DNA of 64,000 bases from an uncultured Candidatus Saccharibacteria bacterium (GCA_964585425.1 CAZPDI010000001.1:4804-68803); one strand, 5' to 3'; counted from the first letter of the stretch, positions 41,860 through 64,000 are shown. Notes: generated by a model from the letters alone, not told the origin. Program-made: numbers and translations.

Positions 41860-42231
41860 TTGACCGAAGCCAATACCCTACCCAAGGCCGATGCCAGCGT
41901 CAAGCTGTCCGACGACATCATCGCAAGCTGCTACGAGGGCTGCGATCCCCGTGAGTCCGATCGAGCTCGCGGCTGCATCGCCGCCCTCAAGGACCTGCTA
42001 CGGCTCGCCGAGAAGACGCCGAACGACGCGCGCTACCAGGAGATCCGGGAGTTCGACGCCGACACCCTGACCGTTGGCCAGTTCATCACCCTGATGTACC
42101 TGCCGGCGATGTCGCCGAATCAGCCCCGCCAGCTGATGCGCAACGTGCGTAGCAACTGGGGGCGACTCAACCAGCGAGTTCTCATCGAGCTGCGAGACAA
42201 GCTGGATGAGCGCTACGAGCCCCAGGACTGA
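41860..42231 (+). CDS. GC-rich ORFan, 123 aa (variable partner of module copy 2)
   Basis: TTG start 5 nt after the SD AAGGAG. It ends in the same GAC TGA TC ATG junction as 40041..40415, but the two proteins show no visible similarity. Confidence 0.5.
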   Translation: MTEANTLPKADASVKLSDDIIASCYEGCDPRESDRARGCIAALKDLLRLAEKTPNDARYQEIREFDADTLTVGQFITLMYLPAMSPNQPRQLMRNVRSNWGRLNQRVLIELRDKLDERYEPQD

Positions 42232-42233
42232 TC

Positions 42234-42467
42234 ATGGGCATCTGGAACTCTCGGCGCAAGAAGACGACACCACCGCCACCTCCTCCTGCACCTCCTCCGC
42301 CGCCCGCGGCTGTCGCGATGAAGACTGCACCACTGGCGCCGCCACCGCGTCGCCGAATGACGGCCGAAGAACGCGCCGCTCTCAAGCTGCCCAAAGTGAA
42401 GGCCCGGCAGCGCCTGGCCAAGAACCGACGCGCCAAGGTCAGGAAGCGCAAGCACAAGAAGTCCTGA
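42234..42467 (+). CDS. Pro-rich / strongly basic mini-protein, 77 aa (conserved partner, copy 2)
   Basis: Paralog of 40418..40627. It contains PPPPPPAPPPPPAAVAMKTAPLAPPPRRRMTAEERAA and the tail KARQRLAKNRRAKVRKRKHKKS. Confidence 0.6.
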   Translation: MGIWNSRRKKTTPPPPPPAPPPPPAAVAMKTAPLAPPPRRRMTAEERAALKLPKVKARQRLAKNRRAKVRKRKHKKS

Positions 42468-42479
42468 TCGCGCCCCTGT

Positions 42480-42523
42480 GGGGACTTTTCTACGGAAAGG
42501 TCCCTGCGGGGGATCTTTCGTTT
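42480..42523 (+). terminator. Conserved 44-nt terminator element, copy B
   Basis: The element reads GGGGACTTTTCTACGGAAAGGTCCCTGCGGGGGATCTTTCGTTT. It is identical to copy A except for one inserted base. Confidence 0.65.
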
Positions 42524-42534
42524 TTAAATGAGAA

Positions 42535-42558
42535 AGACCCAGGATTTCTCCTAGGTCT
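42535..42558 (-). terminator. Hairpin with GAAA tetraloop terminating the minus-strand 143-aa cassette
   Basis: On the minus strand: AGACCTAGGA-gaaa-TCCTGGGTCT, a 10-bp stem with one G-U pair, followed by TTCTCATTT. Confidence 0.55.
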
Positions 42559-42603
42559 AGGGGCCAGGGATTCGACTACCCTGCACCCCCATCCACAACC
42601 TGT

Positions 42604-43035
42604 TCACGCCTGCATATCAGGCGGCAAGGTGAAGGCGTCAGGGTACGAGATGACCAGATCATTATCGTTCAACGGATAGATCGCGCCCCAGTCCGTAAGC
42701 ACGAACCGTTCGCAGAACGTCTGATCCACAGCACGAGCATACGCTGGTATATCACGCAGATCGTCTTTCGTCAGCTCTTGCCCCCAGTAAAAGGTCCCTT
42801 TGTCATGAGAGTTGTGAGTAACGACCTTGTCATCAGGACATATGAATGTGTAGATCTCTGTGAAATCAAAGCCGATAGCCCCTTGCTGGTGCTTAACCCC
42901 GAGAGGGTCACGGCCTGCCGTGACGATGGCATCAACTCGAGACAACACGCCAGTCGGGTATATGTAGCGAGCCACCAACAACTTGGTGGCGACCACGTCG
43001 ATGTGCTTGGTCTGGCTTTCACCCTCGGTATCCAT
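42604..43035 (-). CDS. ORFan, 143 aa, intermediate GC, own promoter and terminator
   Basis: ATG follows the leader ..CCAACCAACGAAGGGG, which carries the SD. No motif recognised. Confidence 0.5.
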   Translation of the reverse strand: MDTEGESQTKHIDVVATKLLVARYIYPTGVLSRVDAIVTAGRDPLGVKHQQGAIGFDFTEIYTFICPDDKVVTHNSHDKGTFYWGQELTKDDLRDIPAYARAVDQTFCERFVLTDWGAIYPLNDNDLVISYPDAFTLPPDMQA

Positions 43036-43076
43036 GATGCGCCCCTTCGTTGGTTGGACTTGAAAAGGATAGTTGC

Positions 43077-43612: not shown

Positions 43613-43690
43613 ATCCAATGGTTGTACCATTCAACTGTCGGGGAATTACATCCGAGAGCGACCTTCTTTAAAGAGGGTCGTTATTTTTTT
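43613..43690 (+). ncRNA. Candidate small RNA of about 78 nt (promoter to intrinsic terminator, no convincing ORF)
   Basis: Downstream of the promoter above lie an internal hairpin AATGGT-tgt-ACCATT and a terminator CGACCTTCT-ttaa-AGAGGGTCG (43659-43680). The run TTATTTTTTT follows. Confidence 0.4.
43659..43690 (+). terminator. Intrinsic terminator (plus-strand orientation)
   Basis: A 9-bp stem with one G-U pair, loop TTAA, then TTATTTTTTT. It overlaps the stop codon of the minus-strand NYN gene. Confidence 0.6.
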
Positions 43691-44229
43691 GCGCGGTACA
43701 CCAGCGGCTTGCCCCAAATATCCTCACTTATTCTCAAAATATCAATGTAGCCATCGCCCCCTGTAAGAAGTTCACTAGATACATTATTTTTAGATGATAC
43801 AATATATACTTTTTTATCACGATTGCGGATAAAACTCACAAGTTCGAGGAAGTCTGAGTCGCCACTAAACAGGACGGCCACATCGTACGAATTGACTAGG
43901 GCTACAGCATCAATGGTAAGCTCAACATCCATATTACCCTTTTCAATAATTAATCCACTACCAGTTTTTATCTGCTTGAGTGGTTTTTTGCGGACTATAT
44001 ATCCCATTCTTTTTTGCAGTGCAGTGTAGAAAGAATGCTTATTCGAAACACTATACTCTCGAGTACCAACCTCGGGATAGGCATCATAATAGTAAATCTC
44101 TAATACACTTGCATGGTATTTTACTTTCAGATAGTTTTTGAGTTTTTTCATATCTAAAAGAACCCCTTTGGTCTTTTGGGCCTGCCAGAGATTAGAGGCA
44201 TCAATAAAAACGTGAACTCTTTTATTCAT
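43681..44229 (-). CDS. NYN-domain (LabA/DUF88-like) protein
   Basis: The start was moved to Met19 (44229). VHVFIDASNL..GNMDVELT..FSGDSDFLELV matches the LabA-like NYN pattern. Confidence 0.65.
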   Translation of the reverse strand: MNKRVHVFIDASNLWQAQKTKGVLLDMKKLKNYLKVKYHASVLEIYYYDAYPEVGTREYSVSNKHSFYTALQKRMGYIVRKKPLKQIKTGSGLIIEKGNMDVELTIDAVALVNSYDVAVLFSGDSDFLELVSFIRNRDKKVYIVSSKNNVSSELLTGGDGYIDILRISEDIWGKPLVYRAKK

Positions 44230-44393
44230 ATCATTAATTATACGGTATTTGTTCGGTATTAGTCGAGGCCGTAATGTCCCCACCGTGTCCGTTCTTCAAA
44301 GTGGGGTTTTTGAGCTCGAGAAAGTCGATGATGGGTTGGATACCTACCTTGGCCGAAGTAGTAACTTCTAGGCCTTTATCATTTATGTAGTGC

Positions 44394-53646: not shown

Positions 53647-54582
53647 TTATTTAGTAAAGTAGGTGGTCTTTACCAGGGTATAGACTTTTGATCCCAGCGG
53701 GATAAGCAACAATACGATGCCGAGCCCAAGCAAGTAATAGGTTTGGCTGTTAAAGGTGGCAATGAAGGCGTTGTAGACATTTTCTACGACGATACGCAAG
53801 TTCTGCTGGTTGACCTGAGCCAATACTGGCGGCTTAAACAATGGACCGACCAAGAGTGCCAGCAAGCCTGCGGTTGAGACAGCGATACCCTGCCCGACCA
53901 GTAACTTGTTAGTTGGATAGCGTTTTTTCACATGTGGCCAGACCAGCAAGAAGAGCGCCAACAGGAAGGCTAATGGTGCTACAAAGGTCAGCACTACACC
54001 AGCCTGATAGAATGATGGGATCTTATCGATATTTTTAAAGATAGTAATAGTGTCAGGTACTTGATCAACCTTAACTACCGCTTCATCCTTATTAGCCAAG
54101 GTCAGCAACTTGGTAATGGTGGTTTTGATACCGCTTAGATCATAGGTGATTGGCTCTGGTCGCTTAGAGGTAAACAAGATCTGCACTTTACCCACTACGG
54201 CATTCAGAGCATTCTGCGCTTGCTGAGTATTAAGCAATCCAGCAATAAAGTTGGTGGCTGGCTCGGCCACTACGGCACGAGCGGCTGGCTGGCTTTGCAA
54301 AGCGGTATCGACAATTTCGCCAGCTAGCGCATTACGGCTGCTTTGCGAGAGTAGTGCTTGACTGGTTACCGTAGTAAACTCCTTGGTATCAAACATCGTA
54401 CGGTTCACCCAAATAGCTGAGTTCGCCACTACTAAAAGCAGCGCAGCCAAGATGGTACTTAGAATAAAATTACGCTTCTTATGTGATTTCTTAGTTGGCG
54501 CAGCAACCGTCTGGCTGGCAACGGACTGAGTTTTTTTCTTTACAGGTGTTTTTGTTGTCTTCTTAGGTGCGGTCCTTGCCAT
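53647..54582 (-). CDS. Membrane hypothetical protein
   Basis: 311 aa with a Lys-rich N-terminus and TM helices at the N- and C-terminal parts. Confidence 0.45.
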   Translation of the reverse strand: MARTAPKKTTKTPVKKKTQSVASQTVAAPTKKSHKKRNFILSTILAALLLVVANSAIWVNRTMFDTKEFTTVTSQALLSQSSRNALAGEIVDTALQSQPAARAVVAEPATNFIAGLLNTQQAQNALNAVVGKVQILFTSKRPEPITYDLSGIKTTITKLLTLANKDEAVVKVDQVPDTITIFKNIDKIPSFYQAGVVLTFVAPLAFLLALFLLVWPHVKKRYPTNKLLVGQGIAVSTAGLLALLVGPLFKPPVLAQVNQQNLRIVVENVYNAFIATFNSQTYYLLGLGIVLLLIPLGSKVYTLVKTTYFTK

Positions 54583-54611
54583 AACAAATCCTTTTCTTGC
54601 TTTATAGCGCT

Positions 54612-54639
54612 ATTATACATCTATTTTCATAAATTGCGA
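54612..54639 (-). promoter_or_regulatory. Candidate promoter of the backbone gene 53647..54582; its sequence is repeated upstream of pyrC
   Basis: On the minus strand: TCGCAA-tttatgaaaatagatg-TATAAT, with a 16-nt spacer. Confidence 0.45.
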
Positions 54640-54642
54640 GCT

Positions 54643-54672
54643 GGCGCCGAGCGAGTCTTCCCGCCCGGCGCC
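54643..54672 (-). terminator. GC hairpin after pyrC
   Basis: GGCGCCG (54643-54649) pairs with CGGCGCC (54666-54672), a 7-bp GC stem 17 nt after the pyrC stop. No U tract. Confidence 0.45.
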
Positions 54673-54688
54673 AATCTCATGCTGCTGG

Positions 54689-55771
54689 CTACCCTGTCCA
54701 GCGCTGACGCTGCAGATCCTCTACCTGCCAACGCAACGTTTGTCCCGCCCGGAATGGCACCACCCCGCCGATCTCTTCAGGCACAGCCCAGGGGATCCTC
54801 GACAACAACACATAATTGTCGTCTTGTGGGGGCTCGACGCCGTAGAACTTGCAACCAGCAATGGAGACAAACTGCTCCAGCCTCTCCGGCCAGTCCTCCA
54901 GACCACTGTCCTCGAACAGTTCCGCCAGCACCGGCAGAGCAACTGGTCCGGAATACACGCCGTTGTTAGGCTTTGCCTTCAGCTTGTCCTCGATTCGATG
55001 AGGCGCCGAGTCGCTACCGAAGAAGATCTTGGGCGGATCACCCGGCTTGACACTGAGCATCGCAGCCAAGATGGCTTGACGATCTTCCTCGGTCTTGGCT
55101 CGCGGCAAACAGGCATGATGCGGCTGATCGATGACACCATCGTGCTCAACGTCATTAATGGTCAAGCATGGATGATGAGCCGTGATGGTGGCAGCGACGT
55201 TGGCCGGCAGCTCCATGATGAGGTTGATGGCATCGGCAGAAGAGACGTGCTCGAAGACGATTCGCAGACCCGGGAATGCCTCATGCACCTCCATGAACAG
55301 CTCGAGGAACATCTGCTCAGCATGAGCGAGATCGTCGGTTGAGACTTCGCCGTGCACGTTAAGCACGACATCAAGCTCCTGCATCACTTCAAATACTGGC
55401 CACCCGTCGTGGATATCCCGCAAACCAAAACCCGAATGAGTCGTGGTGTTGTACGGATAATACTTGACCGAACAGAATCCGTTGCGACGTTCGTACATCA
55501 GACGGATGATCGCTTCATCAGTGTCTGGCGTGAGGTACAAGGTCGGCCACAAGTTCACCATGTTCAGGCCTTTCAGCCCTGCCTGCACCTCTTGCAGATA
55601 GTGGAACGCATGCATAGCGTCACTTACTGGCACCGGGTTGAGGTTTGGCATGAGCAAGGCGTAATGGAGATGACCAATGCTGGGACGAACAACATCTTTC
55701 AGCAGACGTCCTTGACGAACATGAACGTGCCAATCGCTCGGACGACGCATCTTGAGTGCCAAGTAGGGCAT
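54689..55771 (-). CDS. pyrC: Dihydroorotase, short homodimeric (E. coli-like class II) type, GC-rich
   Basis: 360 aa. Motifs line up with E. coli PyrC as I remember it: KMRRPSDWHVHVRQG, MPNL, VKYYPYNTTT (carboxylated Lys position), HGEV, VFEHVSS, ATITAHH, FFGSDSAPH, FYG, VPFRAGQTLRW. Confidence 0.85.
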   Translation of the reverse strand: MPYLALKMRRPSDWHVHVRQGRLLKDVVRPSIGHLHYALLMPNLNPVPVSDAMHAFHYLQEVQAGLKGLNMVNLWPTLYLTPDTDEAIIRLMYERRNGFCSVKYYPYNTTTHSGFGLRDIHDGWPVFEVMQELDVVLNVHGEVSTDDLAHAEQMFLELFMEVHEAFPGLRIVFEHVSSADAINLIMELPANVAATITAHHPCLTINDVEHDGVIDQPHHACLPRAKTEEDRQAILAAMLSVKPGDPPKIFFGSDSAPHRIEDKLKAKPNNGVYSGPVALPVLAELFEDSGLEDWPERLEQFVSIAGCKFYGVEPPQDDNYVLLSRIPWAVPEEIGGVVPFRAGQTLRWQVEDLQRQRWTG

Positions 55772-55839
55772 GGTGAGTCCTTTCGGGACGTTGTGAGTGA
55801 ACGAACAAAGGTGTGCCTAAGCACACCTCCATAACCATT

Positions 55840-55867
55840 ACTATACACTATTATTCATAAATTGCGA
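55840..55867 (-). promoter_or_regulatory. Candidate pyrC promoter, near-duplicate of the 54612-54639 promoter
   Basis: On the minus strand: TCGCAA-tttatgaataatagtg-TATAGT. The shared string is GCTCGCAATTTATGAAnAATAGnTGTATA. A leader hairpin AGGTGTGC-ttag-GCACACCT follows. Confidence 0.45.
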
Positions 55868-55871
55868 GCGT

Positions 55872-55901
55872 CTGGGCCAGGGGAACTCTCCCCCGGCCCA
55901 G
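55872..55901 (-). terminator. GC hairpin after the pyrE-like gene
   Basis: CTGGGCCAGGGGA-actc-TCCCCCGGCCCAG forms a 13-bp stem with one mismatch. No U tract. Confidence 0.45.
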
Positions 55902-55923
55902 CGCGAACCGTTGAATACGGGGC

Positions 55924-56583
55924 TCAGGCTGCGAGTAACTGGACCCAGCCACCCTCGTACTGCGGGTTGACCTCATCGCGGTAGTGGGCACCGTGACCCA
56001 GCGCACCATCGACAACAATGGGCTTGCCAGCTTCACAGAGCGGACAAGCTTCGGCGTCGTAGGACGCGAAGTCCACGTGCGTCAGCTGCTCCAACCGGGG
56101 AACTCCGATGGCGTCAGCCTCCACACCGCCTCGGTTGCAGACGGCACTGATGCCGATCACCTCACCACCACAGGCTTCGATGGCCGCGCAGGTGCCCTGA
56201 ACCGAACTGCCAGTGGTCAGCAGATCCTCGATCACGAGAACGCGTTTGTTCTGCAGGTGCTGCGGGAAGCTCAGGCGATCGACCACGAAGTTGTTGCCCT
56301 CCTTGTCGGCCCACAGGCCAGGCACACGAAGACCCTTCTTGTGCAGTAGCCAGTTCGAGGCAGTGCTGGTGAGCGCCACGCCACCGGTTGCCGGTGATGC
56401 GACAACATCGAAACCGCCGTCGAATGGTCTGAGGAGATCCGAGACGATCTGGCTGAGCATCACTGGATCAGCGAAGATCGGGTCCATGCAGATGTAGCCC
56501 TCACCGTGTCCACCCTTCTTGTACACGAAGTGGTTGTCGAGAAAGACGGCTCCGACCTTCTGGAGGTACTCGAGAATGTCCAT
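55924..56583 (-). CDS. pyrE: Type I phosphoribosyltransferase, probable orotate phosphoribosyltransferase, GC-rich
   Basis: The start was moved to Met14 (56583), behind the SD AGGAA. The PRPP-binding motif is RVLVIEDLLTTGSS. The position between pyrC and pyrF supports the call. A C-terminal CPLCEAGKP motif is present. Confidence 0.6.
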   Translation of the reverse strand: MDILEYLQKVGAVFLDNHFVYKKGGHGEGYICMDPIFADPVMLSQIVSDLLRPFDGGFDVVASPATGGVALTSTASNWLLHKKGLRVPGLWADKEGNNFVVDRLSFPQHLQNKRVLVIEDLLTTGSSVQGTCAAIEACGGEVIGISAVCNRGGVEADAIGVPRLEQLTHVDFASYDAEACPLCEAGKPIVVDGALGHGAHYRDEVNPQYEGGWVQLLAA

Positions 56584-56631
56584 GTGCGTTCCTAACGTGA
56601 GACGAATGCGCCAACTGGTCACATCCGAATT

Positions 56632-56660
56632 ATTATCCTATTCATAAAAGTTATTTACAA
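56632..56660 (-). promoter_or_regulatory. Candidate promoter of the pyrE-like gene
   Basis: On the minus strand: TTGTAA-ataacttttatgaatag-GATAAT, with a 17-nt spacer. It shares TTTATGAATAG with the two promoters downstream. Confidence 0.45.
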
Positions 56661-56675
56661 GCATAAGTGTGTCGC

Positions 56676-56736
56676 CGGACGGGTGGGCAAAAAGTTTACA
56701 GTCCGAAGACCTTCTTCCTCCTCGCCCACCCGTCCG
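56676..56736 (-). terminator. Long hairpin after pyrF
   Basis: A perfect 13-bp stem joins CGGACGGGTGGGC (56676-56688) and GCCCACCCGTCCG (56724-56736), with a 35-nt loop that contains an inner mini-hairpin. Confidence 0.45.
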
Positions 56737-56742
56737 AGCATG

Positions 56743-57675
56743 TCAGGCCGCCAGGCGAACTCGCTCGATGGTCTCGTGCATGTTGGAGGCCTCAGCTTCC
56801 GACGCCTCAGCCGGAGCCAGACCCTCGTACTGCTGGTTGTCGTGAGCATGGGTGATGCCGCTCGAGGAGTTGATGGCGATGCCAGCCTGCTGGCTGTTGT
56901 GTCCGTTCTGGTAGGCGGCTGCAGCGTCACCGCCCTGCTTGTTTCCTACCCCAGGGATCAGGATCGGAACCTGCTCGCCAACACAACGACGAACGTTGGC
57001 AAGGTCGTCGATGGACTCGGGACTTGCGCCGGCCACCACACCGACGTTGCCTCGCTTGTTCCAGCCCTCCAGGCTGGCGACGTTCTGTGCGACTCGCTCG
57101 TACAGGAAGCCCTCCATAGTCACGCCCATGAGGGTTGACGAGCAGGTATCAAGCTTCTGGAACTCCTCGGCGCCAGGGTTGGATGTACGAGTCAGTACGA
57201 AGACCCCCTTGTCGCCACGGTCCAGCCACGGGGCCATGGCCTGTGCACCCATGTAGTTGTGGACGGTGACTGCATCAGCTCCGCAGACGTCGTAGGCGAA
57301 CGAGGCGTAGGTGTCATTGGTCGCTCCGATGTCGCCGGCCTTGAGGTCAAGGATCTTGACGACATCTGGCGCGTGGGTACGCATGTGCTTGAAGAGCAAC
57401 TCCAATGCCTGGATGCCTTCATGGCCATGCTTGAGGTAGAACCCCAAGTTGGGTTTCATCCAGCCGACTTTGCCGGCCAGGGCCTCGACGATCGGGAACA
57501 AGAAGGTGGTGAGCGTACCGCAGATGCTGGCCCGCTGGAAGCCCTCCGGGATGCGTGTGATCACCGGATCATCCTCGCGATAGGTGCTCTTGAGCGTTGG
57601 GTCGAGACCGGCGCAGACTGCACGGTGCTGCCCGGCGTTCAAGGCCACGAGCTCCGAAAAGCTGAGGTCGGACAT
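56743..57675 (-). CDS. pyrF: Orotidine 5'-phosphate decarboxylase, subfamily 2 (long form), GC-rich
   Basis: The start was moved to Met7 (57675), behind the SD GGAGAGGAG. Motifs are MKPNLGFY, the LDLKAGDIGATN signature (DxKxxDIxxT) and PGVGNKQGGD. Confidence 0.8.
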   Translation of the reverse strand: MSDLSFSELVALNAGQHRAVCAGLDPTLKSTYREDDPVITRIPEGFQRASICGTLTTFLFPIVEALAGKVGWMKPNLGFYLKHGHEGIQALELLFKHMRTHAPDVVKILDLKAGDIGATNDTYASFAYDVCGADAVTVHNYMGAQAMAPWLDRGDKGVFVLTRTSNPGAEEFQKLDTCSSTLMGVTMEGFLYERVAQNVASLEGWNKRGNVGVVAGASPESIDDLANVRRCVGEQVPILIPGVGNKQGGDAAAAYQNGHNSQQAGIAINSSSGITHAHDNQQYEGLAPAEASEAEASNMHETIERVRLAA

Positions 57676-57778
57676 GTCAGACTCCTCTCCCATCTGACGA
57701 TGAGATAGATTCGTGCGACCGAATTAGCCACATCCATATTAGTATGGTTTCTGGGACGCTTAAGAGCAAGCGTAAGAG

Positions 57779-58597
57779 TTATTTACTGCGCAACCGTGCG
57801 ATGACAAAGCGAGCGAGGAAGTAAATGAGGAAGCTAAGGAATGTTACAAAAACACTTGGCTTAATAGTTCCGCTGGCTAAGCTCAGGAGTACACCCCCAG
57901 CTCCGGCAACGAAGGCAAAGCCAACGGAAAGACTAGCGACCATGGCGGGTCTGGCCGATAAACGCATAGCGGCAGCGGCTGGTGTAATGGCTAAACTTAA
58001 GACGAGTAGGGTGCCGACGATTTGGGCCGCGGCAGTTACGGTCAGCGCCAAGAGGATCAAGAACGCTATACCAAGCGCACGAACTGGCACGCCACGAGCA
58101 GCGGCGACCTGCGGGTCAATCGAAGCAAACTGTAATGGTCGATACATAATAATGAGGCCCACGATGACGAGCACACAAATTCCTATTAAGAATCCGAGTT
58201 GCGTGGCACTTACGCCATATACATTACCAAAGAGGATGTTGGTCGCCGCGGTGGCGAAGCCACGATAATAACTCAGGAACAACACGCCAAGCCCAAGCCC
58301 AAAGGCCAAGATGACGCCAATGGATGAATCACGTTCTTTTTCACGCACGCCAAGTAAACCGATTGATACGGCGACGATAAGTGCGCCAATAATTGAGCCA
58401 AGCGGCGCATTATTGAGGAACAATAGTCCGGCGGCCGCACCAGTAAAGGCCAGTTCGCTAATGCCATGCACCGCAAACGCCATGCTGCGACGAATCACAA
58501 AAGGGCCCACCAGACCACAAATCATGGCAATGATGGTTGCCGCCAATAAAGCGTGTTGCGCAAAGGGCTGACCTAAATAGAATAGGAAGTTATTCAT
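57779..58597 (-). CDS. znuB: Metal (Zn/Mn) ABC transporter permease, ABC-3 family
   Basis: The start was moved to Met32 (58597), which overlaps the znuC stop. The protein has about eight TM segments in ZnuB/TroD-like context. Confidence 0.8.
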   Translation of the reverse strand: MNNFLFYLGQPFAQHALLAATIIAMICGLVGPFVIRRSMAFAVHGISELAFTGAAAGLLFLNNAPLGSIIGALIVAVSIGLLGVREKERDSSIGVILAFGLGLGVLFLSYYRGFATAATNILFGNVYGVSATQLGFLIGICVLVIVGLIIMYRPLQFASIDPQVAAARGVPVRALGIAFLILLALTVTAAAQIVGTLLVLSLAITPAAAAMRLSARPAMVASLSVGFAFVAGAGGVLLSLASGTIKPSVFVTFLSFLIYFLARFVIARLRSK

Positions 58598-59330
58598 GAT
58601 GCCCTCCCAGTGCCTCGGCGTGTAAACTATCTTCGGCGCCAAGCACCACCATGCGACCGTGGATATTGAGCACTTCGACGGGTGAGCCATACAGCTTACT
58701 CAGGGTCTTAGTTGTCAGGATTTCCTCAGGCGTGCCTAGCAACCACTTCTGCCCCACTAAATATAAAACCTTATCAACCATTGGCAGAATCGGATTAATG
58801 TCGTGCGTCACAAATACCACCGCCGTATTATGTTTGGTACGACGTTCATTAATGAGATTGCTGACGATTTGCTGTTGCGTTAAATCGAGCGAAAGCAGCG
58901 GCTCGTCACATAGCAAAATACTTGGATCTTCAACTAAGGCCTGGGCCACACGCAATCGCTGTTGCTGACCACCACTCAGGGTGCCGAGCGGTTTGTGCGC
59001 AAACTCTTCGGCACCGACGGCTTTAATTGCCTTATCGACGGCCGTCTTCTTGCCTAAGCCTACACCATACTTATGGCCATCTAAACCAAATCGCACTAAG
59101 TCGTAGCCGCGAATGGCGGTGTCATCATCAAAGCCACGGTGCTGCGGAATGTAGCCAATACACTGATCGGCGTGATTTTCTAACAGGCGTTTTAACAAGC
59201 TCGTCTTGCCCGACCCGTTTGGCCCCAGCACCACCAAAAACTCACCGGGCTCTATATTAAGATTAAGATTTTGCCAAAGCTTATGCTCGCCAAATTGCAA
59301 GCTAACGTTCTTTAAGGAAATGAGACTCAT
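58590..59330 (-). CDS. znuC: Metal ABC transporter ATP-binding protein
   Basis: 246 aa with Walker A GPNGSGKTS, signature LSGGQQQR and Walker B ILLCDEP. Confidence 0.85.
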   Translation of the reverse strand: MSLISLKNVSLQFGEHKLWQNLNLNIEPGEFLVVLGPNGSGKTSLLKRLLENHADQCIGYIPQHRGFDDDTAIRGYDLVRFGLDGHKYGVGLGKKTAVDKAIKAVGAEEFAHKPLGTLSGGQQQRLRVAQALVEDPSILLCDEPLLSLDLTQQQIVSNLINERRTKHNTAVVFVTHDINPILPMVDKVLYLVGQKWLLGTPEEILTTKTLSKLYGSPVEVLNIHGRMVVLGAEDSLHAEALGGHHE

Positions 59331-60226
59331 AATGCCCCTAGTATGGCACTAAGTTGTTGCATTTGCCAGGTCTGAAAGTTCTTAACCTTGGGAATCGTTT
59401 CGCTGACCCCTACTACCGCTACGCCGGCTTGCTGGGCAGTCTTTTGCAACTGCTCCGTGACATCATTTACCGCCTGATTGTTATAGAGGAGTACTTTTAC
59501 CTGCCCCGACTTTAATACTGCTTCGAATGCTTGTATTTGCTGTGGGGTTGGCTCACTGCCGTTTTCGACCGATTGCGAAAAGCCAGTCGGAGTTTTGTCG
59601 GTCAAACCAAGATCCTCGATCAAATAGCCGGCCACTCGTTCGGTATAGGCCACGCCGCCATTCACCTGAGTAATTTTGCTGGTTAATTTTTGCATATCGG
59701 CAATAAAGTTTTGAGTGTTTGCCTTATAGCTGATCTCGTGCTCTGGGTCAATTGCAATCAGGTCATTCTGGATGGCTAAGGCCACCTCCTGGATGCGCGG
59801 CAGATCATACCAGAGATGCGGGTTATCATCCTGGTTGGATTTAAGAACTTCGCTGACATTGAGTATTGTTTTATCATTTTGTGGAGCCGCCTCTAAGAGC
59901 TTGTCCATAAACTCGTCGTAGCCCAGACCATTAACTATGATGAGCTGGGCAGATCCTAGCTGCGAGGCAGTTTTAGCGTCGGACTCAAATAAGTGCGGAT
60001 CAGCTTCGGGGTCGCTTAATATAGAAGTAACTTCGACATGCTCGCCACCTACCTGGGCCGCAATATCACCCCAAACGTTGGTGCTCGCAACGATTTGAAC
60101 TTTATTACTATCGTGCGCAACTTGATTCTTTGACTGCAAATATACCACCCCCCATATAAAGAATAGGGCCGATATAAGCATGGCGGCGCCGAGAGCAAAT
60201 GTTCGTTTTTTCGATATATGTGACAT
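59327..60226 (-). CDS. znuA: Metal ABC transporter substrate-binding protein (ZnuA/TroA family)
   Basis: The start was moved to ATG 60226; the track GTG at 60244 lies inside the operator module. The protein has a TM/signal N-terminus and the motifs DPHLFE and NPHLWYD. Confidence 0.8.
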   Translation of the reverse strand: MSHISKKRTFALGAAMLISALFFIWGVVYLQSKNQVAHDSNKVQIVASTNVWGDIAAQVGGEHVEVTSILSDPEADPHLFESDAKTASQLGSAQLIIVNGLGYDEFMDKLLEAAPQNDKTILNVSEVLKSNQDDNPHLWYDLPRIQEVALAIQNDLIAIDPEHEISYKANTQNFIADMQKLTSKITQVNGGVAYTERVAGYLIEDLGLTDKTPTGFSQSVENGSEPTPQQIQAFEAVLKSGQVKVLLYNNQAVNDVTEQLQKTAQQAGVAVVGVSETIPKVKNFQTWQMQQLSAILGAL

Positions 60227-60240
60227 GTCTTTAAAATAAA

Positions 60241-60304
60241 ACACCTTTTTGCTTATTGCAAATTTGTCGCATTAGTGATATCTTATTGCAACAAAGTCGC
60301 ATTA
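60241..60304. promoter_or_regulatory. Dual-box operator-like module in the divergent znuA / zur promoter region (candidate Zur boxes)
   Basis: Box 1 is TTATTGCAAatTTGTCGCATTA (60253-60274) and box 2 is TTATTGCAAcaAAGTCGCATTA (60283-60304). Each is an imperfect palindrome, TATTGCAA..TCGCATTA. The boxes overlap TTGCAA -35-like hexamers on both strands. Confidence 0.55.
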
Positions 60305-60321
60305 ACGAAAGATTAATAAAA

Positions 60322-60765
60322 ATGAAGTCGGACCTACACGTCTACCTCTTAAATCATAAAAAACGCTTAACTCCCTCTAAGGAGCTCGTTTTTGAGCTAC
60401 TCAATAATCACCAGGCAATTACAATCAATGAGCTCTATTCCAAAGTTTCGAAGCAGATGGACAGGGCGACCATGTACCGTATCCTGCAACAATTTTATGA
60501 GCTTAAAGTTATTAAGGACGTAGTTATAAATGGCGTACGCAAGATTGAGTTAGCCGACTACTTTAACAGCCATCACCATCATTTAATTTGCGGCAGATGT
60601 GGCAACGTAGTAAACATTAACGACATGAAACTTGAGCAATACCTTAAGCGGCTTGCTCTCGTTAATAAATTTGTGCATGTATCACATAGTTTTGAAATTG
60701 TCGGTCTATGCCCCACTTGCCGACCACAACCTACCGCTGACTTGCCTTGGGCGGGCGTAGAATAA
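60322..60765 (+). CDS. zur: Fur-family metalloregulator, probably Zur
   Basis: The start was moved to ATG 60322. The protein has a winged helix (RATMYRILQQF), HHHH and two CxxC pairs (CGRC, CPTC). It is divergent from znuABC. Confidence 0.75.
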   Translation: MKSDLHVYLLNHKKRLTPSKELVFELLNNHQAITINELYSKVSKQMDRATMYRILQQFYELKVIKDVVINGVRKIELADYFNSHHHHLICGRCGNVVNINDMKLEQYLKRLALVNKFVHVSHSFEIVGLCPTCRPQPTADLPWAGVE

Positions 60766-61513
60766 GTATACTAGTACGCTTCTTGTATTCTTTATAAGCA
60801 GGGTTACTTCCCCACTTTTTATCGGCGGATTTCTCTAATATGGGTATCCCCGAAGCAAAGATAAGTGTGCCGGCAATGGCCAGGGGGCTGATTAAACCTA
60901 TGAGTCTTTCAAGATTTGTAAGCGATACGAAGAGCGTGATGTACATACCAACCCATACCGTGATTTCACCAAAATAGTTTGGATGACGTGACCAGCTCCA
61001 CAAGCCCTCTTGGATCCATTTGCCTTTATTCTTTGCGTTCTGGGTAAACCGAAACTTTTGTATGTCGGCTACCGCTTCTACAACAAAGCCAAAGGCCCAG
61101 ATTAAGAATCCGAGGACTGCCACGTAACCCAAGGTGACATTGGTTTTTTGGAGCGCAAACAATAATGGCAGCAAGACCACCCAGGCAACGATGGCCTGGA
61201 GCACCCAAAAGCGGCCGAGTAACCAAAAGCTATTGCGCCAGGCATCAAAGCGCTGATCACGGCCAGTTTTTTGGATGCGATACAGCAAGAAGCCACCCAG
61301 TCGGAATGCCCAAACAGCCACCATACCGGTCACCAATAAACGCTGCAAGGTTGCATCACCGCTCAAGTAACCAAACATAGCTAAGACAAAAAAGCTCAGA
61401 GCGTAAGCCGCGTCGGTCAATTTATCGGTCTTAAATGTATAGGCGATTAAAAATAAAACAATGTTGATTCCGAGCGAATAAAGCAGGGCATTGAGTAAAT
61501 AGTATGATGTCAT
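60731..61513 (-). CDS. DUF1295 / steroid-5-alpha-reductase-like membrane protein
   Basis: 260 aa, polytopic, with the WSWSRHPNYFGE motif typical of the DUF1295/ICMT-like superfamily. Confidence 0.6.
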   Translation of the reverse strand: MTSYYLLNALLYSLGINIVLFLIAYTFKTDKLTDAAYALSFFVLAMFGYLSGDATLQRLLVTGMVAVWAFRLGGFLLYRIQKTGRDQRFDAWRNSFWLLGRFWVLQAIVAWVVLLPLLFALQKTNVTLGYVAVLGFLIWAFGFVVEAVADIQKFRFTQNAKNKGKWIQEGLWSWSRHPNYFGEITVWVGMYITLFVSLTNLERLIGLISPLAIAGTLIFASGIPILEKSADKKWGSNPAYKEYKKRTSILILRPPKASQR

Positions 61514-61549
61514 AATTGCAGTTTACCATAAGTAGGTTACAATGAAGAT

Positions 61550-61948
61550 ATGGAATTTATAAAACTCTACGTACTAAGCTTTTTGTGCTTCTTGGGCCTC
61601 GACTCGTTATGGCTAACTAAGGTTTCGCCAAAACTCTATAAAGAACAAATTGGCCACCTGATGGCCGACAAGCCTAACCTAGGAGCGGCTGGACTTTTTT
61701 ATCTGATCTATATTACCGGGCTGGTTGTTTTTGTAGTGCAGCCAGCCGTACAAAAAGAATCAATTATGTATGCCGCCAGCCGCGGCGCATTGTTTGGGTT
61801 GGTCGCCTATGCCACCTTTGACCTTACAAGTTTAGCGGTTCTTAAAAACTGGCCGGTCAAGATAACGGTAATTGACCTCATTTGGGGATCGGTACTAACT
61901 GCCAGCGTCTGTGCCCTGGCCAGCTTCTTAGCCTTACGCGTTAAATAG
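61550..61948 (+). CDS. DUF2177-like small membrane protein
   Basis: 132 aa with four TM segments. The N-terminus MEFIKLYVLSFLCFLGLDSLWL resembles DUF2177 as I remember it. Confidence 0.45.
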   Translation: MEFIKLYVLSFLCFLGLDSLWLTKVSPKLYKEQIGHLMADKPNLGAAGLFYLIYITGLVVFVVQPAVQKESIMYAASRGALFGLVAYATFDLTSLAVLKNWPVKITVIDLIWGSVLTASVCALASFLALRVK

Positions 61949-61956
61949 GACCAACT

Positions 61957-62445
61957 ATGGAGATTGCCAAGAACCAATATATCCGCACCATCATCTTTGC
62001 GGTCGAAGACAGCTTGGTTTCGACCACCGGCCTGATTGCCGGTATTAGCGTCGGCGTCAACAACAAGGCCGTGGTCATCGTGAGCGGTATCGTGGCTATT
62101 GCCGTAGAGGCCATCAGTATGGGTGCCAGTCAGTATATTAGCGATGACGCCATCGAGCAAGCCATTAAAAAGCGTGGTGACAGCCAAGCGTTTAAGGATG
62201 GGCTTCTTATGCTGGCCTCGTACTTTGCAGCCGGCCTCATCCCGCTCCTGCCAGTGGTGTTCTTTACCTATCCAACATCCCTTTACTTTTCGGTGCTCTT
62301 CGCCCTGGTGGGCTTAATAATTCTGGGTTATGTAAAAAGCAGGGTGCTACGCACCAACCCCCTACGTGGTGCCGTAAAAGTCGTCGTAGTTGGTGGTTTA
62401 GCCACCATACTCGGCATCATCGTTGGGCTTATCTTTAAGATTTAA
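61957..62445 (+). CDS. VIT1/CCC1-family (iron/manganese) transporter-like protein
   Basis: 162 aa. IIFAVEDSLVSTTGLIAGIS and AVEAISMGASQYIS match the VIT-family pattern. Confidence 0.6.
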   Translation: MEIAKNQYIRTIIFAVEDSLVSTTGLIAGISVGVNNKAVVIVSGIVAIAVEAISMGASQYISDDAIEQAIKKRGDSQAFKDGLLMLASYFAAGLIPLLPVVFFTYPTSLYFSVLFALVGLIILGYVKSRVLRTNPLRGAVKVVVVGGLATILGIIVGLIFKI

Positions 62446-63458
62446 GCTTCTAGATTGCGGTGTTTAAGAAGAACATTAATGGTTTCTTTGCACGTGGCCG
62501 CCACCGGAATAGCCAGCAGCGTACCTAGCACACCAGCAATCGCCGCGCCAATTAAAACTGCAATTAGCACCGTTAGTGGCGAAATATCAACTTTTTTAGA
62601 GTAGACAAGTGGATTCAGTACGGCATTTTCGAGCTGGACGTAGACGATGGTGAAGGCCACAAAAATAGCAGCCACCCAGGCTTGCCCAGAAAGCAAGGCT
62701 ACGACGGCGATCAAGATGGCGGCCATAGTCGAGCCAACCAGCGGGATCAAATCCAGCAACGCAGCAATGAGGCCTAAAATCAAGAAATAAGGATTGCCCA
62801 ATATCCAGAGAAGCAAGCCACTAGCCACGCCGTACATCATGCTTAGTAAAAAGTTGCCGACGACATAGCCGTTAATAATGCCGTAGACTTTACTGCCAAG
62901 CTCACTCACATCCTTGCGCATAGCAAGGGGCGTCAGCCGAGCTACCGTTTGTTTGATGCTCTTGCCCTCAAGGGTCATAAAGAACATTAGGGCAATAATG
63001 GTCACAAAGGCTACCACAATTTGCACGGTGCTACTCACCAGCGAGACCACCACGCCGCTCAACTGACCAAAGGAGTTGGCAATTTGATTGGCATTAGTCT
63101 TAATGGTATCTGCCCACGGCAAACCAGCAATCACCTGCTCGGCTTTGGCGGTAAGCTCCGGAAGATTAGCGGCAAGATTAGCAGCCTGCTGCGCTACTGG
63201 CGTAAACAGCGCCCAAGCCAAAGCAAAACTAGCTCCACAAAAAACAACTAACAGTAAAAAGGTGGCCAGGCCAATACTCTTTTTGGGCATAAATCGCTGC
63301 AACCAATGAACAATTGGGTTAATGGCAACCGCTAAAAACGCCGCAATGCCAACCCATACCAGGGGCGTACGAGCCAGAAATGCTAAATACAATACGATGG
63401 CTAGCCCTAGCGTAACACCAACTTTTTTTACAAAGGGAGCAATTGATTGATCAGTCAT
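62442..63458 (-). CDS. AI-2E family transporter (PerM/UPF0118)
   Basis: 338 aa, polytopic. LIAALLDLIPLVGSTMAAI matches the family signature. Confidence 0.7.
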   Translation of the reverse strand: MTDQSIAPFVKKVGVTLGLAIVLYLAFLARTPLVWVGIAAFLAVAINPIVHWLQRFMPKKSIGLATFLLLVVFCGASFALAWALFTPVAQQAANLAANLPELTAKAEQVIAGLPWADTIKTNANQIANSFGQLSGVVVSLVSSTVQIVVAFVTIIALMFFMTLEGKSIKQTVARLTPLAMRKDVSELGSKVYGIINGYVVGNFLLSMMYGVASGLLLWILGNPYFLILGLIAALLDLIPLVGSTMAAILIAVVALLSGQAWVAAIFVAFTIVYVQLENAVLNPLVYSKKVDISPLTVLIAVLIGAAIAGVLGTLLAIPVAATCKETINVLLKHRNLEA

Positions 63459-63471
63459 GCCGAATCCTCAT

Positions 63472-64000
63472 TTAAAATAATATCTTAACTTTAGCATTTG
63501 CTACCAAAATACCAACCATAACGGCACTAAATCCGACCATAAAACTCAGGTTCGAGACCGCCAATTGCGCAAAGGCTACTGCCACGCTGGCCGCAAAGAC
63601 ACTCGGAAACACCAATCCACCACGATACCCAAGCGCCTTACTCCAGGCAATAGCTAAAATTTTGATGCCAAATATCCAGGCCAGACCAACATAGCCCAAT
63701 GATGCAGCTTGTTGAATCATGGGTGCTATGGCTTGATTTCCGGTAAACTGCACCAGCGGGCCGCCAAATAGGTAAAGTGCCGACAAACCAGTCCCAGCCA
63801 AAAGTGCCCTGCCCCACCAGGAGCCACTCGTCACAAACTCAAAGTCATTAACGAATACCCGATGAGCAATGGCTATAAGATGCGTTATCGCAAAACCTAC
63901 CGCCACCAACAAGACGCAAGCCAAGACAGCTGCCGAATCGGGACTTGCTACATGGCTGGGCAAGCTTACGTAGGCTGATCCATCGATCAGCTGCAGCGTA
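63472..64000 (-). CDS. C-terminal part of a ClC-type chloride channel-like membrane protein (partial; the frame stays open to the window edge)
   Basis: YRGGLVFPSVFAASVAVAF resembles the ClC GGxFxP motif. The reading frame upstream of the track TTG start (63963) remains open to position 64000. Confidence 0.45.
   Translation of the reverse strand, partial: TLQLIDGSAYVSLPSHVASPDSAAVLACVLLVAVGFAITHLIAIAHRVFVNDFEFVTSGSWWGRALLAGTGLSALYLFGGPLVQFTGNQAIAPMIQQAASLGYVGLAWIFGIKILAIAWSKALGYRGGLVFPSVFAASVAVAFAQLAVSNLSFMVGFSAVMVGILVANAKVKILF

Follow-up and report, generated by a model that had tools for sequence, protein, structure and literature searches.

A variable pyrF, pyrE-like and pyrC module in a conserved slot of a Candidatus Saccharibacteria genome

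Gene content and composition

The 64-kb stretch of DNA analysed here (the window), from an uncultured Candidatus Saccharibacteria bacterium, contains three consecutive minus-strand ORFs for predicted pyrimidine enzymes. The original prediction read them as a partial pathway of foreign composition and as a possible acquired metabolic gain. The locus raises the question of whether these ORFs encode the enzymes proposed and how they came to occupy this site. The features discussed are as follows.

53647-54582, minus strand: hyp311, membrane protein of 311 aa, downstream anchor of the slot, syntenic in all relatives
54612-54639, minus strand: P4, promoter-like element for hyp311, the resident gene downstream; TCGCAA-16-TGTATAAT, i.e. 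(TG)TATAAT, extended -10
54641-54674, minus strand: T3, GC-rich hairpin after pyrC; -29.7 kcal/mol, z = -3.8
54642-57772, no strand: the island as an indel; 3131 nt in the window and 44 nt in the closest relative, L089
54689-55771, minus strand: pyrC, E. coli-type (class II) dihydroorotase, 360 aa
55805-55832, minus strand: conserved 12-bp hairpin where the pyrC transcript is predicted to begin; z = -3.25
55840-55867, minus strand: P3, promoter-like element upstream of pyrC; TCGCAA-16-TGTATAGT, i.e. (TG)TATAGT, extended -10
55868-55904, minus strand: T2, GC-rich hairpin after the PRT gene; -39.8 kcal/mol, z = -4.8
55924-56583, minus strand: pyrE-like phosphoribosyltransferase (PRT type 1), 219 aa
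56632-56660, minus strand: P2, promoter-like element upstream of the PRT gene; TTGTAA-17-GATAAT, found by promoter scan and kept in six lineages
56676-56736, minus strand: T1, GC-rich hairpin after pyrF; -32.1 kcal/mol, z = -4.5
56743-57675, minus strand: pyrF, OMP decarboxylase subfamily 2 (type A), 310 aa
57741-57769, minus strand: P1, promoter-like element upstream of pyrF; TTGCTC-17-CATACT, a paralogue of P2 by alignment
57779-58597, minus strand: znu-type ABC-3 permease, upstream anchor of the slot, with Pfam ABC-3 matches in relatives

Two ORFs were called longer before start correction (PRT gene, 55924-56622; pyrF, 56743-57693). Family alignments moved the PRT start from the GTG at 56622 to the ATG at 56583, while alignment with lineages L059 and L012 makes the ATG at 57675 the probable start of pyrF (the alternative is the upstream ATG at 57693). 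The corrected spacers are 103, 159, 152 and 106 nt in length.

The island genes have a GC content of 0.56-0.62 and a GC3 of 0.66-0.78, as compared with a GC3 of 0.51-0.58 (about 0.5) in six flanking genes, so their composition is foreign to the flanks as had been proposed. This atypical composition and the presence or absence of the segment between close relatives are both hallmarks of a horizontally acquired genomic island. Other hallmarks (mobility genes, a bordering tRNA or att site, or a recognizable donor) were not found at this slot; specifically, ORF calls and the Pfam survey of the window placed no integrase, transposase or tRNA near it. Because the same island junctions recur in independent assemblies from other samples, the island is not a chimera. 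Of the two anchors, the permease shows 78-92% protein identity across lineages, and hyp311 has no Pfam or NCBIfam match.

Enzyme assignments

PyrF scores 152.8 bits against TIGR02127 (pyrF_sub2), above the cut-off of 110.6. In an alignment with 122 relatives, the GLDP Asp, KPN Lys, DxKxxD, PG and QGG residues are all conserved, and the catalytic and phosphate-loop residues D, K, D-K-D, P and Q never vary. Based on this score and these residues, the protein is assigned to subfamily 2 of the OMP decarboxylases (the Mycobacterium, Leishmania and Plasmodium type). It shares all catalytic residues with this type but differs in that the phosphate-gripper Arg is replaced by Ser; as Ser is also found in 40 of the 122 relatives, about a third, this replacement is read from the alignment as a natural variant. 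The nearest proteins outside the island clade are approximately 43% identical, and among the best 120 matches seven of the nine taxon-labelled proteins are from Patescibacteria.

PyrC is a near miss to the curated TIGR00856 (pyrC_dimer) model, scoring 274.1 bits against a cut-off of 292.95 (19 bits under) in an end-to-end alignment. It resembles the family members in the PDB (1j79, 4lfy and 6cty) in its full-length alignment, its size (about 350 aa in the family) and its complete set of ligands (HxH, Arg, MPN Asn, carboxylated Lys, HGE, EH, DSAPH and the Thr-Thr loop), and matches dihydroorotases in the PDB with an E-value of 1e-53. Its DWHVHVR, MPNL, VKYYP, NTTTHSG, VHGEV, FEHV and GSDSAPH segments all have aligned counterparts in 4lfy and 6cty. 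It differs from them in falling below the cut-off and in its low identity to proteins outside the island group: the nearest is from an unplaced relative, P0003 (49%), and every other protein is at or below 44%. Seven of the 13 taxon-labelled proteins among the best 120 matches are from Patescibacteria, at approximately 40% identity.

The transferase is more divergent. It matches Pfam Pribosyltran and carries the PRPP-binding loop motif (VLVIEDLLTTGSS) of the type I PRT fold, but falls below the cut-offs of both pyrE models (TIGR01367 pyrE_Therm, 89.2 bits, cut-off 150.25; TIGR00336, 52.6 bits, cut-off 106.8). When the family profile was searched against the PDB, the top match was Helicobacter pylori OPRT 4paw (E-value: 2e-18) and the remaining best matches were also OPRTs. 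Similarly, the AlphaFold model (pLDDT 90.3) has 4paw as its best fold match, with OPRT chains at ranks 3-15 and OPRTs only among the top 15. The protein shares with the Thermus/Helicobacter enzymes (TIGR01367, HP1257, 4paw) the fold (TM 0.72-0.79) and the PRPP, NRGG and C-terminal CxLC motifs, but is only approximately 25% identical to them. The segment corresponding to the N-terminal orotate/PRPP-contact motif (F-x-L-x-S-G-x-x-S) is HFVYKSGKHGSGY in the family consensus and HFVYKKGGHGEGY in the window protein: the GHFLLSSGxHS of the Thermus/Helicobacter enzymes becomes HFVYKKGGHG, with the SGxHS-like part altered to KKGGHG. An additional conserved tail (D-x-GHG...HPDY-GGY-LL) forms a C-terminal extension of approximately 25 aa that is unique to the small PRT type 1 family, which has 51 members, nearly all from Saccharibacteria or Actinomycetota. 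By sequence and model, the window protein is a divergent relative of the Thermus/Helicobacter-type OPRTs.

Genomic context is also informative. PRT type 1 genes adjoin pyrF in every context examined, with three different kinds of pyrF as partners in Saccharibacteria and Actinomycetota; in L005-L008 they are accompanied by both pyrD and pyrC, and in L018 and L020 by pyrD. Taken together, the sequence, fold and neighbourhood suggest that the transferase is best read as orotate-type. The three enzyme assignments made originally are thus supported by family models, catalytic residues and fold matches.

Pathway reach

We infer the functions of all three enzymes from sequence, fold and neighbourhood. 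The transferase would convert orotate and PRPP into OMP, PyrF would decarboxylate OMP to UMP, and the two together could let the cell make UMP from scavenged orotate. For PyrC, interconversion of carbamoyl-aspartate and dihydroorotate is predicted. As noted originally, pyrD, pyrB and carAB are absent from the 64-kb window: a Pfam survey of 30 further ORFs there turned up neither a DHO_dh nor an OTCase or CPSase domain, and the complete de novo pathway to UMP is not present there. Because the window has no dihydroorotate dehydrogenase, nothing in it joins PyrC to the orotate-to-UMP steps; of the suggestion that scavenged orotate or dihydroorotate is turned into UMP, the orotate part is retained as a prediction, and for the dihydroorotate part the connecting step is missing from the window.

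The accompanying premise that Saccharibacteria lack such genes was too broad. Pairs of pyrF and PRT genes occur in many labelled Saccharibacteria MAGs, some with an adjoining DHODH or DHODH-like gene, and partial to near-complete pyrimidine pathways have already been reported in the class (PMC7786006; bioRxiv 10.64898/2026.09.16.751625).

Promoter-like elements and hairpins

Each of the three genes has its own promoter-like element and hairpin, as originally described. The four sigma-70-type candidates, two of them with an extended -10 (TGnTATAAT-like), are conserved across lineages. A generic scanner passed only P2; these putative promoters are counted as real elements because of their conservation in six lineages rather than their consensus score. 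Transcription of hyp311 is assigned to P4. P3 and P4 lie within a 31-nt direct repeat (55839-55869 and 54611-54641, 81% identity), copies of which flank pyrC on both sides.

For each of T1-T3, none of 200 shuffled sequences folded as stably. T1 has perfectly complementary arms of 13 nt, T2 is present in every lineage, where base pairs have changed on one side or on both, and T3 is conserved in L003, L059 and L061. The hairpin at the 5' end of pyrC shows one compensatory pair change and wobble pair changes across four lineages. T1-T3 are not followed by a T-run, and a scanner for intrinsic (Rho-independent) terminators reported none of the three because these hairpins lack a U-tract. Based on the arrangement of these putative elements, it is plausible that the three genes are transcribed separately and do not form an operon.

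A fixed slot with variable contents

The island lies between the znu-type permease and a conserved block of membrane-protein, marR and MFS genes, and it occupies this one fixed slot in eight or more related lineages. In L089 it is empty: blastn alignment shows 44 nt in place of 3131 nt, with 93.3% identity over window positions 57773-64000 and 90.7% over 54200-54641. Since the alignment of L089 runs from 54641 onward, the P4 copy of the repeat flanks the indel, and this copy is identical in the two genomes. The slot is filled differently in seven other lineages and is partly decayed in one (L003). The module is therefore variable cargo of a conserved slot rather than a single acquired gain in this genome, as the comparison with sister genomes proposed originally has revealed.

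In the relatives, the slot contains PyrF proteins of two clades, PyrC proteins of two clades, three OPRT-like types unrelated to one another and, in one case, a deletion remnant. L059 and L061 have an E. coli-type OPRT at the PRT position (RKEAKDHGEGG loop; TIGR00336, 102 and 93 bits), L087 has a third OPRT-like protein, and L003 retains an in-frame deletion remnant of the PRT gene. The slots of L010 and L012, two lineages that fall within a set of pyrC carriers, lack pyrC. In the PyrF tree, clade A (86% bootstrap) is separate from clade B (98%), and the two PyrC clades (98% and 100%) are likewise apart. The unrelated PyrF and PRT types, together with a repeat-bracketed pyrC present in only some relatives, bear out the proposal that the genes have separate histories.

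The flanks are mosaic. L059 is nearest to the window for the ABC ATPase, permease, MarR and MFS genes, whereas L003, L010 and L012 are nearest for hyp311, PyrC and the PRT. The PRT-pyrC and pyrC-hyp311 spacers are 77-86% identical between lineages, compared with 60-69% for adjacent island coding sequence and 72-78% for flank coding sequence. Island ORFs are GC-rich in all lineages (GC3 0.66-0.94), and their dN is three to five times that of the flanks. In a search of 5.8 billion proteins, nothing outside the syntenic group and the nearest unplaced relatives exceeded 53% (PRT), 49% (PyrC) or 43% (PyrF) identity. Without a close donor, recent import is not demonstrated.

Origin and maintenance of the island

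We think it probable, with real room for doubt, that the island is a dispensable, recombining accessory module for conversion of orotate to UMP, with pyrC as an add-on, in a Saccharibacteria-type genome. Its accessory status is indicated by the empty slot of L089, the PRT remnant of L003 and the absence of pyrC from L010 and L012, and ORF replacement by the separate grouping of the PyrF and PyrC clades and the mosaic flanks. Comparison of the lineages indicates that the regulatory DNA of the slot (promoters, leaders and hairpins) is inherited along with the flanks. The ORFs between these elements, by contrast, are lost, deleted or swapped for enzymes of the same kind that are not orthologous, by recombination between related lineages and, now and then, by import. 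The position of pyrC between duplicated promoter copies would allow gain by duplication or loss by recombination between the repeats. We know of no simple mechanism by which ORF replacement would end within a few bases of start and stop codons, and this counts against the proposal. Also counted against it were the lack of pathway context in the window, the sub-threshold pyrE scores and altered N-terminal motif of the transferase, and the lack of a close donor and of mobility genes.

A same slot and regulatory scaffold in at least eight lineages, with the scaffold about as diverged as the flanks, would also be expected of an old resident locus, present since the common ancestor of these lineages, in which high GC3 and fast protein evolution were generated locally, with selection on codon usage or GC-biased gene conversion at a hot spot of recombination as possible causes. 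The lack of a close donor in very large databases, the visibly recombinant locus and the single clades formed by PyrC of the window, L003 and L061 and by PyrF of the window, L012, L059 and L061 fit this account, as does a pS of 0.52-0.66 between island orthologues with GC3 nevertheless high in both members of each pair. However, the TIGR01367-like, TIGR00336-like and third OPRT-like types cannot have arisen by divergence in place, and the same is true of PyrF clades A and B. Furthermore, outside Saccharibacteria the PRT type 1 family is shared almost exclusively with Actinomycetota, and the L003 pseudogene remnant still has a GC3 of 0.92, which argues against codon selection. We therefore regard long residence as unlikely, although the persistence of high GC3 despite large synonymous differences is a difficulty for plain old- and plain recent-acquisition models alike.

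Two further readings concern function, and we give each of them little weight. If the genes were non-functional leftovers of a broken pyrimidine pathway in the course of being lost, then the missing DHODH, ATCase and CPSase, the absence of the island from the closest relative, the PRT deletion in L003, the loss of pyrC from two lineages, the elevated dN and a dN/dS of 0.6-0.76 in two comparisons would all be explained. Such decay is very doubtful, since all three window ORFs are complete and retain their full set of catalytic residues, dN/dS is 0.18-0.38 in most orthologous pairs, promoters, Shine-Dalgarno sites and hairpins are conserved across lineages, and the OPRT position has been refilled rather than abandoned. 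Alternatively, the transferase, and possibly its PyrF-like partner, might use a substrate other than orotate or OMP, so that the module would not serve pyrimidine synthesis. The scores below both pyrE cut-offs, the altered N-terminal motif and the small, sharply bounded family with its unique extension are compatible with this, and the pair in a Solirubrobacterales genome of 5.3 Mb might be an additional set alongside canonical genes. It is nonetheless highly improbable given that OPRTs are the best sequence, profile and fold matches, that the gene always adjoins pyrF and in several lineages is found with pyrD, or with pyrD and pyrC, as well, and that a canonical OPRT type takes its position in the same slot.

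Comparison with known systems

The pyrF-pyrE(-pyrD) clusters of other Saccharimonadia share their late-pathway enzymes and the PRT type 1 family with the accessory module proposed here, and near-complete de novo pathways have been reported for Ca. Lutisaccharimonas (bioRxiv 10.64898/2026.09.16.751625). In those clusters the genes are tightly packed, and the L030-type group has native GC content and an adjoining DHODH-like gene. The window island, in contrast, is GC-rich, has separately promoted genes with pyrC in place of pyrD, and varies among close relatives.

In its fixed slot, presence or absence, alternative cargo, atypical composition and mosaic flanks, the island resembles strain-variable islands and replacement hot spots. 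It is different from these in that it has no integrase, tRNA or transposase, its alternative cargos for the most part encode the same enzymes in different versions and not unrelated functions, and the regulatory DNA between the ORFs is kept while the ORFs change. The enzymes themselves are ordinary; the unusual pattern is that of swapped ORFs inside conserved regulatory DNA.

Island genes and regulatory elements

Three minus-strand ORFs, with Pfam matches to OMPdecase, Pribosyltran and Amidohydro_2, occupy a slot between a znu-type ABC permease gene and hyp311. Based on alignment with relatives, the start of the phosphoribosyltransferase (PRT) gene was shifted from GTG 56622 to ATG 56583 and ATG 57675 was preferred for pyrF. 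The features of the locus, in window positions, are as follows:

57779-58597, minus strand: znu-type ABC permease gene, one border of the three-ORF island
56743-57675, minus strand: pyrF, 310 aa; TIGR02127 pyrF_sub2, 152.8 bits (cut-off 110.6)
56676-56736: T1, GC-rich hairpin after pyrF
55924-56583, minus strand: PRT gene, 219 aa; TIGR01367 pyrE_Therm, 89 bits (cut-off 150)
55868-55904: T2, GC-rich hairpin after the PRT gene
55839-55869: 31-nt direct repeat, copy at promoter-like element P3
55805-55832: 12-bp hairpin at the predicted 5' end of the pyrC transcript
54689-55771, minus strand: pyrC, 360 aa; TIGR00856 pyrC_dimer, 274 bits (cut-off 293)
54641-54674: T3, GC-rich hairpin after pyrC
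54611-54641: 31-nt direct repeat, copy at promoter-like element P4
53647-54582: hyp311, 311-aa membrane protein of no known family, the other border of the island

There is nothing unusual about the enzymes, each of which is a member or near-member of a known family. The island has a GC content of 0.56-0.62 and a GC3 of 0.66-0.78, compared with a GC3 of 0.51-0.58 for six flanking genes. Several plus-strand ORFs of 100-200 aa lie antisense to the pyr genes of the window. In a relative, L009, the gene caller set a 415-aa minus-strand ORF (bp 8728-9975) over a plus-strand pyrF, the DNA being identical in L010; annotation of GC-rich islands can thus be misled by long antisense ORFs.

The spacers measure 103, 159, 152 and 106 nt after start correction. 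T1-T3 fold at -30 to -40 kcal/mol (z = -3.8 to -4.8; 0/200 shuffles fold equally well), and downstream of each hairpin is a promoter-like element. An extended -10 is present in the two elements closest to pyrC and hyp311 (TGTATAGT and TGTATAAT). P1 and P2 are paralogous, while P3 and P4 form the direct repeat (81% identity) that brackets pyrC. A generic terminator scan reported none of the three island hairpins because their stems lack a U-tract behind them, and a generic scanner recognised only one of the four promoters; as so few elements are recognised in this way, the functional case rests on conservation across lineages. It was originally predicted that the genes are not an operon and have one promoter and one hairpin each. 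Each does have its own promoter-like element and hairpin, but separate transcripts are only inferred from these.

The 12-bp hairpin is kept in four lineages, among which it shows one compensatory pair change as well as wobble pair changes. An Rfam search of the whole window, and of the island at a permissive threshold, found no known pyrimidine leader and no PyrR site; the only match, to Acido-1 (E = 0.68), is at chance level.

Contents of the slot in related genomes

Syntenic contigs from independent samples were recovered via exact-protein look-ups. Among these, the flank proteins (ABC ATPase, permease, MarR and MFS) are 73-92% identical, while the slot is empty in one contig (L089) and variably filled in the others, so that presence and absence of the island do vary among relatives.

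Slot contents of the window and syntenic contigs (pyrF-A and pyrF-B, two PyrF clades; PRT1, the PRT family of the window; percentages, identity)
Window: pyrF-A, PRT1, pyrC
L003 and L004: pyrF-B, 49-aa in-frame PRT1 remnant, pyrC (61%)
L010 and L011: 193-aa ORF, pyrF-B, PRT1; without pyrC (L009 is the same DNA with genes called differently)
L012: pyrF-A, PRT1; without pyrC
L059: pyrF-A (63%), E. coli-type OPRT with RKEEKKHGEGG loop, pyrC (43%)
L061: pyrF-A (50%), other E. coli-type OPRT (38% to that of L059), pyrC (36%)
L087 and L088: third, very divergent OPRT-like ORF, then DUF998-like membrane protein; without pyrF and pyrC
L089: empty

Upstream, L089 and the window share 93.3% nucleotide identity over 6228 ungapped bases; downstream, the identity is 90.7%. 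In place of window 54642-57772 it has 44 nt, and the P4 promoter and leader are identical in the two sequences. The best match of these 44 nt to the island is no better than that obtained in 113 of 500 shuffles, and the change may be either an insertion or a deletion. An assembly chimera was ruled out, as the junctions recur in independent assemblies. Logan contig SRR13208893 (L001) matches window 54612-58004 exactly and ends inside the P4 repeat copy, which suggests that short-read assemblies break at P4 through the repeat or strain heterogeneity.

In L087 (bp 5745-7615) and L088, the OPRT-like ORF (230 aa, GC3 0.77) lies between the usual leader and the usual T2 hairpin, and in L087 it is without its usual partner pyrF. 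The DUF998-like gene of L087 has native GC, and the four flank proteins of this contig are 87-92% identical to those of the window. In L009 and L012, heliorhodopsin genes (PF18761) lie upstream of the znu genes at a distance of 3-5 kb; the corresponding place in the window is taken by a DUF1295 gene (60731-61513), and there is no heliorhodopsin among the scanned ORFs of the window.

Conservation of the spacers

Between lineages, the PRT-pyrC and pyrC-hyp311 spacers share 77-86% identity, which equals or exceeds the best flank coding DNA (72-78%), while neighbouring island coding DNA reaches only 60-69%. Window-by-window identity plots give the non-homologous OPRT ORFs a score of 0.38, approximately chance. 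The pyrF leaders of L003 and L012 are ~80% identical despite their ORFs being of types B and A, and in L059 and L061 the conserved sequence restarts within ~10-20 nt of the point where an OPRT ORF of a different type ends. Elsewhere, short native spacers (hyp311-marR, for example) show similar conservation (85-88%), and conservation of the island scaffold is therefore attributed to ordinary regulatory constraint. The oddity is the exchange of ORFs between fixed regulatory units, not the conservation of the scaffold. An integron-like cassette model was ruled out, as the hairpins track the slot and not the ORF type. A scan of JGI metagenome contigs with the P3/P4 promoter pattern found no further islands, and a protein scan with the flanking permease as query matched distant relatives only (≤65% identity), none of them close to pyr genes.

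Replacement, recombination and composition

In neighbour-joining trees with bootstrap, the PyrF proteins of the window, L012, L059 and L061 form one clade (86%) and those of L003 and L010 another (98%), and the two stay apart among 115 homologues. The PyrC proteins of the window, L003 and L061 cluster (98%), while that of L059 falls elsewhere with two unplaced proteins (100%). As the three OPRT-like types belong to different subfamilies, they cannot be the product of divergence in place. Taken together, the clades and OPRT types therefore indicate that divergence within the slot is partly fast evolution of orthologues and partly true replacement. That the three genes might have separate histories was part of the original prediction, and non-orthologous versions of PyrF, OPRT and PyrC do occur, with pyrC missing from some slots.

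The flanks are themselves mosaic: by four genes, on both sides, L059 is closest to the window (91-92%), while L003, L010 and L012 are closest by hyp311, PyrC and PRT. L010 and L012, which are without pyrC, are nested among pyrC-bearing lineages, and each has one P3/P4-type promoter after T2. Such an arrangement is just what recombination between the 31-nt repeats would leave, and recombination of this kind may account for the loss of pyrC.

The island genes have dN values of 0.21-0.42 and dN/dS values of 0.18-0.38 (Nei-Gojobori), with higher ratios in two comparisons (PyrF-B, 0.76; the two type-2 OPRTs, 0.61). In the flanks, dN ranges from 0.05 to 0.15 for the ABC ATPase, permease, MarR and MFS genes, with higher values (0.17-0.39) for hyp311 and ZnuA. 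The island genes are thus under purifying selection that is weaker than that on the flanks. Synonymous rates were considered as a measure of age and found to be uninformative, as flank sites are saturated and island sites compositionally constrained. In all lineages, pyr-type island ORFs have a GC3 of 0.66-0.94 compared with ~0.5 in the flanks, and even the L003 PRT1 pseudogene remnant has a GC3 of 0.92. High GC3 maintained through large synonymous divergence suits neither a simple old nor a simple recent acquisition. The cause may be GC-biased gene conversion at a recombining locus or independent import from an unsampled GC-rich pool.

What is unusual here is the behaviour of the locus, documented from nine slot states: one slot, conserved regulatory units, repeated non-orthologous refilling and persistent GC-richness. 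A tentative and rather doubtful reading is that the slot may be a fixed "expression rack" in which promoter, leader and hairpin units stay, ORFs are repeatedly swapped for non-orthologous versions of the same enzyme (three OPRT types, two PyrF clades and two PyrC clades) and GC-richness is kept up through a locus-specific process. The cause of such swapping could be selection on these enzymes in an epibiont dwelling on Actinomycetota, for example by host-made pyrimidine antimetabolites. Alternatively, the cause could lie in recombination of a kind that exchanges DNA one ORF at a time.

Origin of the genes

Beyond the syntenic group and its nearest unplaced relatives, the closest relatives have 53% (PRT), 49% (PyrC) and 43% (PyrF) identity. 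In GTDB representative genomes, PRT1 is found in Saccharibacteria and Actinomycetota (Solirubrobacterales, Thermoleophilia, Mycobacteriales and Acidimicrobiales), plus one Verrucomicrobiae MAG. The Saccharibacteria and Actinomycetota clades interleave in the PRT1 tree, in which the island clade has 100% bootstrap. Five labelled Saccharibacteria MAGs with a GC content of 0.46-0.48 (L025, L028, L032, L033 and L035) carry a GC-rich two-gene pyrF-PRT1 island at other genomic sites, with a subfamily-1-like pyrF of ~250-265 aa; the PyrF proteins of L035 and L018 are 71-74% identical to Solirubrobacterales PyrF. There is good evidence from these comparisons to suggest exchange between Saccharibacteria and Actinomycetota. 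The known hosts of Saccharibacteria are Actinomycetota.

Labelled relatives of the other two proteins are mostly Patescibacteria (7/13 named matches for PyrC and 7/9 for PyrF). With PRT1 shared with Actinomycetota and the labelled relatives of PyrC and PyrF mostly from Patescibacteria, the earlier doubt about a single actinobacterial donor was well placed. The view of the island as an acquired metabolic gain stands only in part, the module being optional, recombining and partly decaying, and late pyrimidine genes being common in the lineage.

Enzyme function

No inactivating substitutions were found in PyrC or PyrF. PyrC aligns end-to-end with solved class II dihydroorotases (E = 1e-53) and has all metal and substrate ligands and the Thr-Thr loop, and PyrF has kept all of its catalytic residues. 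An Arg-to-Ser change in the PyrF phosphate gripper (phosphate loop) was ruled out as inactivating because Ser is present in 40 of 122 relatives.

PRT1 is a family of 51 proteins among 5.8 billion searched, set off from all others by a sharp gap in score. Its members have the conserved motifs HFVYKSGKHGSGY, WADK, EDLLTTGGS, CNRGG and CxLC and an additional C-terminal tail. The best match of the family profile is Helicobacter pylori OPRT (4paw, E = 2e-18), followed by further OPRTs; 4paw is also the top fold match of the AlphaFold model of the PRT (pLDDT 90.3), with ranks 3-15 also OPRT chains. Genomic context is the strongest functional evidence for the PRT as a putative OPRT. PRT1 adjoins a pyrF in all arrangements seen. 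Many labelled Saccharibacteria MAGs combine it with pyrF subfamily 2 and a DHODH-like gene, Solirubrobacterales and other Saccharibacteria have it beside a subfamily-1-like pyrF, and in four loci of 60% GC (L005-L008; GCA_009772815.1, GCA_009772875.1 and ENA contigs) it lies together with pyrD and pyrC. The gene order in these four loci is pyrD, PRT1, pyrC, a pentapeptide-repeat protein gene, an 80-aa ORF and pyrF, and the cluster adjoins genes for a 1581-1622-aa domainless protein and a DDE transposase. No other context was found with all four late pyrimidine genes beside the PRT1 family.

DHO_dh, OTCase and CPSase domains were absent from the ORFs of the window. The island most likely serves to convert orotate to UMP, with the dihydroorotase step unconnected.

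The usual description of Saccharibacteria and other ultra-small bacteria is that they depend on their hosts for nucleotides. The last steps to UMP are here an optional, strain-variable trait within one lineage, the transferase of the locus belongs to a small family that Saccharibacteria share almost only with Actinomycetota, and the same enzyme positions have been refilled repeatedly with unrelated versions while the regulatory DNA is unchanged. If the swapping holds, it becomes testable which pressure favours the turnover of orotate-utilising enzymes in an epibiont and by what means single genes are exchanged between reduced, naturally competent genomes. With three natural variants of OPRT and two of PyrF in a single genetic context, the locus also lends itself to functional comparison. 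Saccharibacteria have been said to be unable to make nucleotides, yet 10 of 14 pyrimidine enzymes were reported in two genomes (PMC7786006), and near-complete de novo pathways are described in Ca. Lutisaccharimonas (2026 preprint, bioRxiv 10.64898/2026.09.16.751625). Saccharibacteria and orotate were not found together in the literature searched, and, among the top literature matches listed for Saccharibacteria with pyrE, pyrF and related terms, none mentions Saccharibacteria.

Remainder of the window

The rest of the window encodes UvrABC, glycolysis and pentose-phosphate enzymes, thioredoxin reductase, NYN-domain proteins and BipA. The Saccharibacteria-type taxonomy is supported by BipA, which is 78.5% identical to that from a locus of a labelled Saccharibacteria MAG, and by UvrA, which is 69.5% identical to that of a Patescibacteria MAG.

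Two further GC-rich islands were observed, whose ORFs have no Pfam or NCBIfam match. The second island (9964-12130, GC 0.58-0.66), between the aminopeptidase P gene and uvrA, contains two mutually dissimilar plus-strand ORFs of 265 aa (10372-11169, GC3 0.71; 11306-12103, GC3 0.88) on the strand opposite to their neighbours. The third (40000-43050), between NYN-domain genes at 39316-39942 and 43681-44283, contains plus-strand ORFs at 40041-40415, 40981-41733 and 41860-42231 with a GC3 of 0.73-0.85.
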